Shown here: positions 10,417-19,190 of the stretch, piece by piece
How positions within the stretch are numbered: position 1 is the first letter of the stretch
Layout: every line of letters starts with the position of its first letter
From: Escherichia coli
Lineage (GTDB): Bacteria; Pseudomonadota; Gammaproteobacteria; Enterobacterales; Enterobacteriaceae
Strand: one strand, 5' to 3'
DNA length: 64,000 nucleotides
Assembly: GCF_003334815.1 (NCBI RefSeq)
Contig: NZ_QOWO01000003.1
Notes under the pieces: generated by a model
What the model saw: only the letters and a program-made list of their open reading frames with translations
Database searches by the model: none
What the model was told of the DNA's origin: nothing
Program-made: the position numbers and the translations under genes

Positions 10417-10692
10417 TCATGCATACAGTATCGCCTGTACGCGCCAGTTATCAGGCTGCTGGTCTTCGTACATGGTAATAATGCGGTACCATGACGCACC
10501 TTGTTCATCGGCCTTTAACGCCACGATACGTTCCACGTCCTGCGGATCCCCTGAAATATTGCTAACTGAGATCTGACCTATTTCATTCAGGCCCGTCACG
10601 CAGTCAGCACTGGCGAATTCTGCAGACTGTGCCGTGGCGCTCGCAGGATAAGTCACTAATTGCAGCGAGGGTGAGGCAAGTAATTGTTTCAT
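10417..10692 (-). CDS. yjfN: DUF1471 (YdgH/BhsA/McbA-family) secreted protein YjfN
   Basis: 91 aa from MKQLLASPSLQL...; signal peptide; C-terminal ...QAILYA. Confidence 0.8.
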   Translation of the reverse strand: MKQLLASPSLQLVTYPASATAQSAEFASADCVTGLNEIGQISVSNISGDPQDVERIVALKADEQGASWYRIITMYEDQQPDNWRVQAILYA

Positions 10693-10840
10693 CGTCAGCT
10701 CCATTTTTCGTTTCCCCACATGTTGCAGGGCATTCCATCGCGGTAATAAACGCCCAGGCTTCCAGCCGGTAATTTATTGTGCACAGGTAAACGCATAGGG
10801 ACGCAAAGCAATGTAAAGCTGACTATGTAAGTTGTCTGAT

Positions 10841-11170
10841 TTATTTACGGTACAAAATGGCTTGTGAATACCACTGTCCTGTCACGATGGTTTCGTCCAC
10901 CATGACGACAACGTAATAATCAGCTTTTGCAGCGACAGCTTTCGCTTTGATTTCTGCTAATGCGTCATCCGGAGAACCCCGAACCATCGTGCTTACGCTA
11001 CCTATTCGCTGTAACCCTTGCGTCTGGTCGCGGCGAATCTCTTGCGGATGGTCCGTTACTGGCGGTGCTGGCTGTGGCGTACCTTGCAGTGCGCTACAGG
11101 CACTTAACATCAACACCAATAATAAACTGGCAAACCGGTAAATAACGCTATTACGTTTCCTGCTAACCAT
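10841..11170 (-). CDS. bsmA: biofilm/peroxide-resistance lipoprotein BsmA
   Basis: 109 aa from MVSRKRN...; lipobox LSAC; C-terminal ...QAILYRK. Confidence 0.8.
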   Translation of the reverse strand: MVSRKRNSVIYRFASLLLVLMLSACSALQGTPQPAPPVTDHPQEIRRDQTQGLQRIGSVSTMVRGSPDDALAEIKAKAVAAKADYYVVVMVDETIVTGQWYSQAILYRK

Positions 11171-11351
11171 AGTGTAGTGCCTTATTAATTTAACTTTGGG
11201 GGAATGTTCCCGAATTGTTACCTGGTACGCGATTTTCGAATGAAAACGTGACGAAAGCGTAACCCACATCTCAACATTATGAACTAATACCGCCAGCAGA
11301 AACTTGTGCTAAGGATTTCTTCATGTCATACCAGACAAAAAGGAGAGACAG

Positions 11352-12101
11352 ATGATTGAAATAGAATCACGCGAGCTGGCAGATATTCCCGTTCTTCATG
11401 CTTATCCTGTCGGACAAAAAGATACCCCGTTACCGTGCGCGATTTTTTATCACGGCTTTACTTCGTCCAGTCTGGTGTATAGCTATTTTGCCGTTGCGCT
11501 GGCGCAGGCTGGTTTGCGGGTGATCATGCCGGATGCGCCCGATCACGGTAGTCGTTTTAGTGGCGACGCAGCGCGGCGGTTAAATCAATTCTGGCAAATC
11601 TTGCTACAAAGTATGCAGGAATTCACTACTTTACGTGCGGCAATAGCCGAAGAAAAGTGGCTGCTTGATGACCGTCTGGCAGTCGGTGGTGCGTCGATGG
11701 GCGCGATGACGGCACTGGGGATTACCGCTCGCCACCCCACGGTGAGATGTACCGCCAGCATGATGGGATCGGGCTATTTTACATCGCTCGCCCGTTCACT
11801 GTTTCCACCGCTGATACCTGAAACGGCAGCACAACAGAATGAATTCAATAACATTGTCGCGCCGCTGGCAGAGTGGGAAGCGACAAACCACCTGGAACAA
11901 CTTGGTGACAGACCTCTACTGCTGTGGCATGGCCTCGACGATGACGTTGTGCCTGCCGATGAATCACTACGTTTGCAGCAGGCCTTAAGCGAGACGGGAC
12001 GGGATAAACTGCTAACCTGTTCATGGCAGCCAGGCGTGCGTCACCGCATTACGCCTGAGGCGTTAGATGCTGCAGTGACATTTTTCCGCCAGCATCTTTA
12101 A
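11352..12101 (+). CDS. yjfP: alpha/beta-hydrolase esterase YjfP
   Basis: 249 aa, GxSxG (GASMG) nucleophile elbow. Confidence 0.88.
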
Positions 12102-12853
12102 ACACGCAGAATGCTGACCCCTTGCGCTTCCAGTTGTTGCAGGATTTCCGGGTTAGCATTTTTGCCGGTGATCAGCATATCAATTTGATCGGCACGGCTA
12201 AAAAGCATTCCCGCGCGTTCGCCAATCTTACTGCTATCAACCAGTACCACCAGTTTCCCTACCACGCTCAGCATCTTCTGCTCTGCCATTGCCGTCAGCA
12301 TATCGGTTTTATACAACCCTTCTGCTGTCAGTCCTTTGCCGCTGGTAAACATCCAGTGCCCGGCATAGAGACTGTTTTCGCTGCCCTGCGGGCTTAAAGT
12401 GATGGACTGACTTTTGTTGTACTGTCCGCCCATAATGATCACGCTGTCATGTTCTTGATCGATCAGGTAATTTGCCAGCGGTAGATAATTAGTGATGATT
12501 TGCACTGGCTTGCCACACATTTCCCGCCCAAGCAGAAACGCGGTGGAGCCGCAGTTGATGACTACGCTTTCGCCCGGATTAACCAGCTGCGAGGCCGCTT
12601 TAGCGATACGTACTTTTTCATCGTGATTCTGCGCCTGATGCAGATTCATCGGCGTCCAGCGCGGGCGCTGTTGGGTAATAGCTTCTGCGCCATTGCGCAC
12701 TTTTTTCAGTTTGCCGCTTTCGTCAAGTTTATTGATATCGCGTCGCGCAGTGGCAGGCGAAATTCCCAGACGCTCAACGACTTTCTCAACGGTCACAAAG
12801 CCCAATTGTGCGAGCATTTCCAGGAGGATTTGATGTCTTTGTGCTTCAGTCAT
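12098..12853 (-). CDS. ulaR: DeoR-family repressor of the ascorbate (ula) regulon
   Basis: 251 aa, N-terminal HTH, DeoR C-terminal domain. Confidence 0.92.
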
Positions 12854-12960
12854 GAGCTATTCCGATAAAATTTGATTTTTTTAGATGATATTTGAAATAG
12901 CCAGGAAATACTACGCCGGATAGCGCGAACTACTCCACGCTATCCGGTATAAACGACAGA

Positions 12961-17236: not shown

Positions 17237-17245
17237 GGAGCGGAT

Positions 17246-18100
17246 ATGTTGTCCAAACAAATCCCGCTTGGCATCTATGAAAAAGCGCTCCCCGCCGGGG
17301 AGTGCTGGCTGGAACGCCTGCAACTGGCAAAAACGTTGGGCTTCGATTTTGTCGAGATGTCGGTAGATGAAACGGACGAGCGCCTGTCGCGCCTCGACTG
17401 GAGCCGCGAGCAGCGTCTGGCGCTGGTGAACGCGATTGTTGAAACCGGCGTGCGCGTGCCGTCCATGTGCCTTTCTGCTCATCGTCGTTTCCCGCTGGGC
17501 AGTGAAGATGACGCGGTGCGGGCGCAGGGGCTGGAGATTATGCGTAAAGCTATCCAGTTCGCCCAGGATGTCGGTATTCGCGTGATCCAACTGGCGGGCT
17601 ATGACGTTTACTATCAGGAAGCCAATAACGAAACGCGTCGTCGTTTCCGTGACGGCCTGAAAGAGAGCGTTGAGATGGCAAGCCGCGCGCAGGTGACGCT
17701 GGCGATGGAGATCATGGATTACCCATTGATGAACTCCATCAGCAAGGCGCTGGGCTACGCGCACTATCTCAACAACCCGTGGTTCCAGCTCTACCCGGAT
17801 ATCGGCAACCTCTCGGCGTGGGACAACGACGTGCAGATGGAGTTGCAGGCCGGAATCGGGCATATCGTCGCGGTACATGTGAAAGACACCAAACCGGGCG
17901 TCTTCAAAAACGTGCCGTTTGGCGAAGGCGTGGTGGATTTCGAACGTTGTTTCGAAACGCTCAAACAGAGTGGCTATTGCGGGCCGTACCTGATTGAGAT
18001 GTGGAGCGAAACGGCGGAAGACCCGGCGGCAGAAGTGGCGAAAGCGCGTGATTGGGTGAAAGCGCGCATGGCGAAAGCGGGCATGGTGGAGGCGGCATAA
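17246..18100 (+). CDS. ulaE: L-xylulose-5-phosphate 3-epimerase
   Basis: 284 aa, TIM barrel. Confidence 0.92.
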
Positions 18101-18786
18101 TGCAAAAGCTAAAACAGCAGGTATTTGAAGCCAACATGGAGCTGCCGCGCTACGGGCTGGTGACCTTTACCTGGGGCAACGTCAGCGCTATCGACCGCGA
18201 ACGCGGGCTGGTGGTGATCAAGCCCAGCGGCGTTGCCTACGAAACCATGAAAGCGGCCGATATGGTGGTGGTTGATATGAGCGGCAAGGTGGTGGAAGGG
18301 GAGTATCGCCCATCTTCCGACACCGCGACGCATCTCGAACTCTACCGTCGTTACCCGTCGCTTGGCGGCATTGTCCATACCCACTCCACTCATGCCACCG
18401 CATGGGCGCAGGCGGGGCTGGCGATCCCGGCGTTAGGCACCACGCACGCTGACTACTTCTTTGGTGATATCCCGTGCACGCGCGGATTAAGCGAAGAAGA
18501 GGTGCAGGGTGAGTACGAACTGAACACTGGCAAAGTGATTATCGAAACGCTGGGCAACGCCGAGCCGCTGCATACGCCGGGAATTGTGGTGTATCAGCAC
18601 GGACCGTTCGCCTGGGGGAAAGATGCCCACGACGCGGTGCATAACGCGGTAGTGATGGAAGAAGTGGCGAAAATGGCGTGGATTGCGCGCAGTATTAATC
18701 CACAACTCAATCACATCGACAGCTTCCTGATGAATAAACACTTCATGCGTAAACACGGTCCTAACGCTTATTACGGGCAGAAGTAG
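18100..18786 (+). CDS. ulaF: L-ribulose-5-phosphate 4-epimerase
   Basis: 228 aa from ATG overlapping ulaE stop (TAATG); class II aldolase fold. Confidence 0.92.
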
Positions 18787-18842
18787 AACACGCGCTGCGG
18801 AAATTTCCTTCCTCGGGAGATAACTGGTCTAATTCCGCAGCC

Positions 18843-18876
18843 GTTTTTCAAAAAAAGCCCCCTGAGAAGGGGGCAA
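18843..18876 (-). terminator. rho-independent terminator (yjfY; hairpin shared with ula operon end)
   Basis: gccccct-gaga-agggggc hairpin with T-run on minus strand. Confidence 0.55.
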
Positions 18877-18914
18877 AGCAAACTATGGCAATGTTTCTTT
18901 GGTTATACCTGGTG

Positions 18915-19190
18915 CTAGCGATAAATATCCGCGCTGGCGTGCATATTGCCGTTACTCCCCGGTTCCCGCATCAGAATCACGTGGTAGTACGTTGCGCCCT
19001 GCGCATCTGTCTCTTCATTTAATGCCTGACGCGCTTCGCTTTCAGTGGCGAAATTATGATTGATATAAATCACGCCTAAGCTTTGCACATCGTCCATATT
19101 TCTGGCCTGGTGGTTATTAATTTCAATGGCTGCCCATGTATTTGCACTTAGCAAAAGCACAGCCAGAAGGGCTAAAACACGGCTGAACAT
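18915..19190 (-). CDS. yjfY: DUF1471 secreted protein YjfY
   Basis: 91 aa with signal peptide; C-terminal ...ASADIYR. Confidence 0.85.
   Translation of the reverse strand: MFSRVLALLAVLLLSANTWAAIEINNHQARNMDDVQSLGVIYINHNFATESEARQALNEETDAQGATYYHVILMREPGSNGNMHASADIYR

Follow-up and report, generated by a model that had tools for sequence, protein, structure and literature searches.

DUF1471 paralogs yjfN, bsmA and yjfY of Escherichia coli as probable remnants of an old local gene cluster

Three small genes on the minus strand of a 64-kb stretch of Escherichia coli DNA (contig NZ_QOWO01000003.1; the whole stretch is hereafter called the window), yjfN, bsmA (also named yjfO) and yjfY, lie within 9 kb of one another and encode bona fide members of PF07338, the YdgH/BhsA/McbA-like family formerly known as DUF1471. 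Taken as a whole, the evidence is best explained if the three genes are paralogs and remnants of an old, compact local DUF1471 cluster, which we regard as likely. Within this explanation, bsmA and yjfN are very likely to be ancient tandem duplicates, and the chance that yjfY belongs to the same old cluster is slightly better than even. The observation is correct but ordinary, in that family membership is already annotated and published, as is the adjacency of yjfN and yjfO as evidence of duplication. An initial annotation, made from the sequence without database searches, had delimited three open reading frames (ORFs) on this strand and quoted their C-terminal peptides; both the limits and the peptides proved exact:

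10417-10692, minus strand: yjfN, 91-residue DUF1471 protein ending in -ILYA; RefSeq "DUF1471 family protease activator YjfN"
10841-11170, minus strand: bsmA (yjfO), 109-residue DUF1471 lipoprotein, as predicted from its sequence; RefSeq "biofilm peroxide resistance protein BsmA"
18915-19190, minus strand: yjfY, 91-residue DUF1471 protein; RefSeq "DUF1471 family protein YjfY"

The window is E. coli core chromosome: positions 10000-19500 were matched by E. coli chromosomes at 100% identity, and the region was found in all 5426 complete genomes searched, with at least 80% of it covered in 5348.

Family membership and fold

The family assignment made in the initial annotation was borne out by full-length matches of all three proteins to the 55-position Pfam model PF07338: YjfN at E 3e-17 (model positions 1-54), BsmA at E 1.2e-15 (positions 1-55) and YjfY at E 8.3e-20 (positions 1-55). 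A family hidden Markov model (HMM), built with the three proteins included, was run on all 815 stop-to-stop segments of the window in six frames and recovered only yjfN, bsmA and yjfY (E 1e-26 to 1e-30); the Pfam matches serve as the independent test. No further DUF1471 copy or pseudogene was found in the window by this model, the next match having an E value of 0.59. BsmA, for which placement in an unrelated family had been considered, belongs with the other two by PF07338, by fold (see below) and by the BsmA equivalog model NCBIfam NF011433, on which its 109-residue ORF scored 153.3 bits against a curated cut-off of 100, with YjfN (51 bits) and YjfY (32 bits) below the cut-off, as expected for paralogs. 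Other DUF1471 models, YhcN, BhsA and YdgH among them, were cross-matched by all three proteins. The C-terminal pattern proposed in the initial annotation needed adjustment, since its [AS]xYY element is present in BsmA and YjfY but not in YjfN, which has SWY; a C-terminally anchored motif relaxed to accept W or Y matches exactly the three ORFs in the window.

An AlphaFold model of BsmA, computed from an alignment of 38 orthologs (mean predicted local distance difference test score 89.9), has the beta-alpha-beta-beta core of the DUF1471 fold, with strands at residues 54-64, 85-93 and 99-108 and the helix at 67-80, and provides a check that does not depend on sequence HMMs. Its best fold matches in the PDB were the YdgH domains YdgH-I (2m2j, template modelling (TM) score 0.78) and YdgH-III (4evu, 0.79) and SrfN (2ma8/2jna). 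The model fits the YdgH domains better than YahO, which is consistent with the split by hairpin length described in the next section. YjfY matched solved chains by sequence (2jna and 2ma8, both SrfN, and 2m2j, YdgH), the closest being SrfN 2jna at E 1e-6. The same sequence search of solved structures gave no significant match for YjfN or BsmA; the structural relatives of BsmA were found by fold search only.

Among 1.84 billion proteins, 509 family representatives were retrieved at E ≤ 1e-3, and ten DUF1471 paralogs were retrieved from K-12. According to Eletsky et al. 2014 (PMC4092069), DUF1471 comprises about 12 paralogous subfamilies, is limited to enterobacteria and has ten members in E. 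coli, YjfN, YjfO (BsmA) and YjfY among them; the adjacent yjfN/yjfO genes are cited in that paper as a sign of family expansion through duplication. The family consists of small exported envelope proteins with a mixed alpha+beta fold, of about 90 residues or with three repeats of the domain. The three window proteins share with the DUF1471/YhcN family the 55-residue domain, the export signals, the A-x-[IL]-Y C-terminal strand and the restriction to Enterobacterales, and show no difference in kind from it. BsmA orthologs at named loci come nearly all from Enterobacteriaceae genera, with one labelled Chryseobacterium. The aidB-yjfN-bsmA-ula-yjfY-rpsF locus on this contig (L044, "Chryseobacterium sp. 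18061") is typical of Enterobacteriaceae, and contamination or mislabelling is likely because its proteins look the same as those of Citrobacter sp. 18056 (L045), a record of the same project.

Gene order and the origin of the cluster

Synteny in other Enterobacteriaceae, which the initial annotation had proposed as a check, was compared by a scan with BsmA that used one genome per species and gave the 80 closest loci, from more than 15 genera (Escherichia, Salmonella, Citrobacter, Enterobacter, Klebsiella, Raoultella, Kluyvera, Buttiauxella, Lelliottia, Leclercia, Trabulsiella, Yokenella and others). In 79 of the 80 loci bsmA is immediately followed by yjfN in the same orientation, the spacer between them having a median length of 149 bp. 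Throughout the scan the gene order is rpsF / yjfY / [ula] / yjfP / bsmA-yjfN / aidB; it has the ula genes as its variable element and agrees with the RefSeq series across the interval studied here (aidB, yjfN, bsmA, yjfP, ulaR, ulaG, ulaABCDEF, yjfY, rpsF). Two features separate the bsmA-yjfN pair from yjfY in the window:

11352-12101, plus strand: yjfP, esterase, a conserved member of the neighbourhood
12098-18786, no single strand assigned: ulaR-ulaG / ulaABCDEF ascorbate block, presence/absence cargo between the convergent 3' ends of yjfP and yjfY

The initial annotation had suggested local duplication of all three genes. This suggestion is well supported for bsmA and yjfN, by the near-constant adjacency and by sequence comparison, and is only plausible for yjfY. 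For comparisons within the species we used 12 domains from ten K-12 paralogs (the three window proteins and seven retrieved ones). By BLAST, the top paralog of BsmA is YjfN (37 bits, 30% identity over 87 residues), and YjfN itself matches YhcN best (41 bits), followed by BsmA (37 bits). In a comparison of subfamily profiles, which drew on orthologs and on the scan of the 1.84 billion representatives, BsmA scored 90 with YjfN (87-90 depending on direction) against 64 with its next partner, and YjfN scored marginally higher with YhcN (91) than with BsmA (87). In a divergent lineage (L087), the neighbouring BsmA-like and YjfN-like proteins are 40.5% identical over 74 residues.

The attribution of yjfY to the same cluster follows from its location, its hairpin class and a weak profile affinity, and not from a resolved tree. 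Deep branching had no support in the trees, so we relied on profile comparison and on an indel character. The C-terminal beta-hairpin is three residues longer in 96 of 96 domains of the YjfN, BsmA, YjfY and YdgH types, and this insertion is missing from 56 of 61 domains of the YbiJ, McbA, BhsA, YahO, RclB and YhcN types. In profile comparison YjfY scored 55 with YhcN, 54 with YjfN, 49 with YdgH-III and 37 with BsmA, which makes YjfN its top partner other than YhcN.

The distance between yjfY and the pair depends on the ula genes. Of the loci with all three DUF1471 genes, 54 have ula and 15 lack it. Where ula is present, the stretch from yjfY to yjfN measures 8.7 kb in the median; in the ula-less loci it measures 1.9-2.1 kb in 13 of the 15 and about 3.27 kb in the other two (L033 and L049). 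In the ula-less genomes yjfP is the sole gene between yjfY and bsmA-yjfN, and the yjfY/yjfP junction measures 70-175 bp in 13 of the 15 loci. The 9-kb spread of the three genes in E. coli is thus due to the ula block, which sits where yjfP and yjfY converge. The compact, ula-less order yjfY-yjfP-bsmA-yjfN (about 2 kb) also occurs at L089, a locus more divergent than any named one (identities of 71% for AidB and 50% for YjfP, compared with at least 72.6% and at least 55.8% in the 80 loci). The ula block may have been inserted rather than repeatedly lost; insertion is favoured by its absence from the divergent L089, by the clean junctions and by the alternative cargo at the same site.

This alternative cargo is found in L033 (a Citrobacter amalonaticus strain; L033:7881-9196) and L049 (Enterobacter sp. 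JUb54), where about 1.4 kb with ORFs resembling major facilitator superfamily (MFS) transporters lies in the yjfY/yjfP gap; in L033 these ORFs are broken up across three frames, which may point to a pseudogene. The gap thus seems to be a recurrent cargo site. In a metagenome-assembled genome labelled "uncultured Erwinia sp." (L084:9110-11264), ulaR is followed by a bsmA-like gene, rlmB and rnr, with yjfP, yjfN, aidB and the yjf genes missing, an arrangement due to either deletion or mis-assembly; its ula genes are highly similar to those of E. coli, which makes the taxon label doubtful. Two records are both labelled Buttiauxella agrestis ATCC 33320 (L068 and L076), and just one of them has the ula operon at the site; one of the two is probably mislabelled, given that L068 is flagged UNVERIFIED_ORG.

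According to the favoured explanation, tandem duplication would have produced bsmA and yjfN before the radiation of the Enterobacteriaceae, and yjfY would belong, as a more distant relative, to the same long-hairpin branch. The ancestral yjfY would have lain about 2 kb from the pair, across yjfP, until the ula block of about 7 kb stretched the cluster to its present 9 kb in E. coli. BsmA would have kept or acquired a lipobox and a proline-rich tether and so become a membrane-anchored lipoprotein. YjfN would be soluble, with its own conserved promoter region and a hydrophobic end that, as published, docks on DegP, and YjfY would be exported by a strong Sec signal, carry a charged C-terminus and have SrfN as its closest characterised relative. 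Of these elements, homology, fold, synteny and the conservation of motifs are shown by the present results, and the order and direction of the duplications, the insertion of ula and Cpx control of yjfN are inferred.

Several results weigh against this explanation. No BLAST high-scoring segment pair was obtained between YjfY and YjfN of E. coli, and YjfY and BsmA reach just 24 bits. For YjfN as well as for YjfY, YhcN, which is encoded elsewhere, scores at least as high as the neighbours. Nearly all subfamilies have YhcN as their best or near-best partner, so that it behaves as a slowly evolving hub, and its scores may be an effect of slow evolution; still, sequence similarity does not by itself tie yjfY to the locus. 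A neighbour-joining tree of the 12 domains joined YjfN and BsmA with 48% bootstrap and placed YjfY with the YdgH domains (52-58%), an exclusive clade of YjfN, BsmA and YjfY receiving 10%. A larger neighbour-joining tree, its 157 domains drawn from the 150 best representatives and from E. coli paralogs and orthologs, supported no deep node, partly because, with labels taken from the best BLAST hit, the "BsmA" and "YhcN" bins also take in unnamed subfamilies. The hairpin character depends on the alignment of a variable loop, five of the 61 short-class domains break the split, and SrfN, the closest solved relative of YjfY, has a loop of intermediate length. The ula genes, finally, are patchy within genera (Citrobacter amalonaticus, Kluyvera, Raoultella, Buttiauxella), a pattern that repeated loss fits as well as gain.

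It is possible, although we consider it doubtful, that bsmA and yjfN alone are local duplicates and that yjfY is an independent, older paralog, kin to SrfN, YhcN or YdgH, which came to lie nearby by coincidence or through an unrelated rearrangement. The missing YjfY-YjfN alignment, the grouping of YjfY with YdgH domains and the match to SrfN all fit such an origin, as do the best BLAST matches of YjfY (YhcN, 41 bits; YdgH-I, 33 bits); moreover, yjfP on the opposite strand separates yjfY from the pair, so that yjfY is no simple head-to-tail tandem copy. Coincidence, however, is a poor account of the closeness: for ten random genes on 4.64 Mb, the probability that three fall within 8.8 kb is about 1.3e-3, and within 2 kb about 6e-5. 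The compact order recurs in the divergent L089, where the YjfY-like protein is 35% identical over 75 residues to its own YjfN-like neighbour; YjfY, YjfN and BsmA share the long-hairpin class; and YjfN is a joint-best profile partner of YjfY.

Selection for clustering, with the three genes forming one functional or co-regulated envelope-stress module, would explain why the gene order is kept across more than 15 genera, why all three products are exported DUF1471 proteins and why stress and biofilm phenotypes are repeatedly tied to members of the family (PMC4092069). We nevertheless consider it quite unlikely. The genes appear to form separate transcription units, with a promoter-like block between bsmA and yjfN and with yjfY convergent to yjfP and followed by its own terminator, and 7 kb of ula genes or an MFS gene are tolerated between the members. 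The CpxR iModulon holds yjfN and neither bsmA nor yjfY (PMC7657598), and in the literature family members have not been reported to interact genetically or biochemically (PMC11705850). At a locus of a further divergent lineage (L090:825-1715), bsmA occurs without yjfN: the order is yjfP-bsmA-aidB with 211 bp from bsmA to aidB, so yjfN was either lost there or never gained. Convergence or chance in the C-terminal pattern of non-homologous proteins, which pairwise identities of at most 30% and the looseness of the literal expression (unanchored, it also matches one unrelated ORF) might suggest, is rejected as extremely improbable on the HMM and fold evidence, namely the full-length Pfam matches of all three proteins at E values of the order of 1e-15 or lower, the cross-matches to several curated DUF1471 models, the predicted BsmA fold (TM 0.78-0.79 to solved members) and the sequence matches of YjfY to SrfN and YdgH chains.

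Export signals, C-termini and the bsmA-yjfN spacer

The initial annotation had assigned a signal or lipoprotein sequence to all three proteins, and this holds for BsmA and YjfY, with a qualification for YjfN. BsmA has the lipobox LSAC with Cys25, which a proline-rich linker of about 25 residues connects to the domain; a lipobox of the L[ST][GA]C type is present in at least 69 of 78 BsmA orthologs, and BsmA is the only one of the three proteins with a lipobox. Judged from this motif, BsmA is a predicted lipoprotein. YjfY has a canonical Sec signal (…LLSANTWA|A) with a best 10-residue Kyte-Doolittle mean of 3.48. The predicted signal of YjfN, MKQLLASPSLQLVTYPASATA|QS, has an A-x-A-like site (ATA|QS) and a weak hydrophobic core, the least hydrophobic of the ten E. 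coli paralogs by the same measure (1.45 vs 2.1-3.5). This Escherichia signal, LLASPSLQLVTYPASATA (codons 1-21, 10630-10692), is poor in hydrophobic residues and contains two Pro, one Gln and one Tyr. Across the orthologs (L007-L086) the median is 2.0, and the Klebsiella and Raoultella types are weaker still than that of Escherichia. The mature N-terminus QSAEFASADCV is almost invariant among YjfN orthologs. Together, the weak signal and the near-invariant mature N-terminus raise the question of the efficiency or route of export. The export signal of YjfN is thus a prediction, and its periplasmic location is taken from the literature.

The C-termini of the three proteins differ. In 67 of 68 YjfN orthologs the last residue is hydrophobic (A or V, in -LYA, -IYA or -LYV), and those of BsmA (-YRK) and YjfY (-YR) are charged. 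According to the account of Kim et al. 2018 given in PMC12096828, YjfN is a "suicide activator" of DegP that acts via its hydrophobic C-terminal Ala and is itself degraded, and the stimulation of DegP by YjfN has been reproduced with CsgA as substrate (bioRxiv 10.1101/2024.12.25.630354). With their charged ends, BsmA and YjfY are not expected to activate DegP, which should be specific to YjfN. The YjfN-like protein of L087 ends in -IYR, which suggests that the hydrophobic C-terminus, and with it the activator feature, may be derived.

The spacer between bsmA and yjfN contains a conserved block:

10773-10819, minus strand: conserved block of the bsmA-yjfN spacer, candidate yjfN promoter/operator

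The block is about 47 bp long, and in a comparison of 80 unique spacers most of its positions agree with E. coli at 80-99%. It includes TTTAC-N5-TTTGC at 10803-10817, exact in 65 of the 80 spacers, with a further TTTAC 11 bp on; the pattern has two matches in the window vs 0.26 expected. A second conserved patch of the spacer, GCGATGGAATGCCCTG, was observed in the presumed 5' untranslated region of yjfN. The consensus binding site of CpxR is GTAAA-N5-GTAAA, and TTTAC-N5-TTTGC, read on the opposite strand, comes close to this consensus, which makes it a candidate operator. A repeat of this kind fits the membership of yjfN in the CpxR iModulon, in which yjfN is included without chromatin immunoprecipitation support as a direct target, and bsmA and yjfY are not listed (PMC7657598). 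From its conservation, on which the promoter proposal is based, the block probably provides yjfN with an envelope-stress promoter of its own, and yjfN would then be under Cpx control. A scan for sigma-70 consensus promoters around the genes found nothing. No terminator was detected on the coding strand between bsmA and yjfN, so read-through from bsmA is possible.

Downstream and flanking elements of the interval were as follows:

18857-18874, minus strand: intrinsic-terminator-like hairpin, GCCCCCTTCTCAGGGGGC followed by seven T, 41 bp past the yjfY stop codon
19436-19520, plus strand: RpsF leader (Rfam RF02893, 110 bits), directly 5' of rpsF, in the region divergent from yjfY

The hairpin is strong in G+C and sits 71 bp past the ulaF stop codon of the other strand; lying between two convergent genes, ulaF and yjfY, it may terminate transcription in both directions. 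At the other end of the ula block, the 3' ends of the convergent yjfP and ulaR coding regions share 4 bp (12098-12101), leaving no spacer between yjfP and the block. A palindrome resembling repetitive extragenic palindromic elements, GCCGGATGCGGCGCGAGCGCCTTGTCCGGCCTAC (minus strand, 10358-10391), lies just downstream of yjfN and before the convergent aidB, and no classic T-tract terminator was detected at these positions in the yjfN/aidB gap. The RpsF leader, upstream of the divergently transcribed rpsF, was the only Rfam match in a scan of window positions 10-20 kb.

Relation to characterised proteins and significance

YjfN is the same protein as the DegP suicide activator of Kim et al. 2018 (J Bacteriol 200:e00519-17, as cited in PMC12096828), and bsmA is the same gene as that for the biofilm/peroxide protein BsmA/YjfO (NF011433), which has been linked to biofilm and peroxide phenotypes (Weber et al. 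2010, Microbiology 156:139, as cited in PMC4092069). The closest characterised relative of YjfY, SrfN of Salmonella (STM0082; 2jna/2ma8), has the motif G-x-YYH-[VI]-I-x-x-RE-x-G in common with it. SrfN differs in that it is absent from E. coli and encoded elsewhere in Salmonella, and its hairpin is two residues shorter than that of YjfY. A second same-strand DUF1471 pair of E. coli, ybiJ/mcbA (L003:3666-8057; K-12 837665-842056), lies 4 kb apart with ybiI-ybiX-fiu between its members; at 46.5% identity, against 30% for bsmA/yjfN, it is the younger pair, and mcbA is missing from Salmonella (PMC4092069).

A further likeness concerns BsmA and RcsF (2l8y/2y1b). The BsmA model matches the RcsF fold with TM scores of 0.57-0.66 (ranks 6-7), and the architecture is alike, with a lipobox followed by a proline-rich linker and an alpha+beta domain. 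BsmA, in contrast, has no significant sequence similarity to RcsF (13.2 bits on NF008048, against a cut-off of 140), and mature BsmA has no cysteine other than the lipidated Cys25, whereas RcsF has two structural disulfide bonds. Membership of BsmA in the RcsF family is ruled out by this score and by the missing disulfide cysteines, and an RcsF-like mode of action would be speculation by analogy. A bolder scenario can nevertheless be drawn, which we consider unlikely as a whole. In it, a compact cluster of yjfY, yjfP and bsmA-yjfN would have been split by insertion of ula into a recombination-prone gap, and yjfN would have arisen from a bsmA-like lipoprotein gene, losing the lipobox and tether and gaining a hydrophobic C-terminus and a Cpx-type promoter, to become a soluble DegP activator. 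BsmA itself would be RcsF-like and located in the outer membrane, where it would associate with or thread through porins to report or modify the state of the envelope.

Family membership and the idea of duplication date back in the literature to 1998 and 2014 (for the DUF1471/YhcN family, Rudd 1998 and Eletsky et al. 2014). Added here are the split by hairpin length, the compact arrangement of ula-less loci, the conserved candidate promoter block of yjfN and the conservation of the YjfN C-terminus across genera, and for BsmA the conservation of the lipobox and proline-rich tether and a predicted fold nearest to that of the YdgH domains. Testable leads are provided by two features, the weak signal peptide of YjfN and the likeness of BsmA to RcsF in architecture. 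The yjfP/yjfY gap is a site of gain or loss of metabolic cargo, the ula genes being one example. We propose that yjfN, bsmA and yjfY offer a tidy case of lineage-restricted small envelope proteins in which local expansion would have been followed by divergence in localisation, in the C-terminal signalling residue and in regulation.

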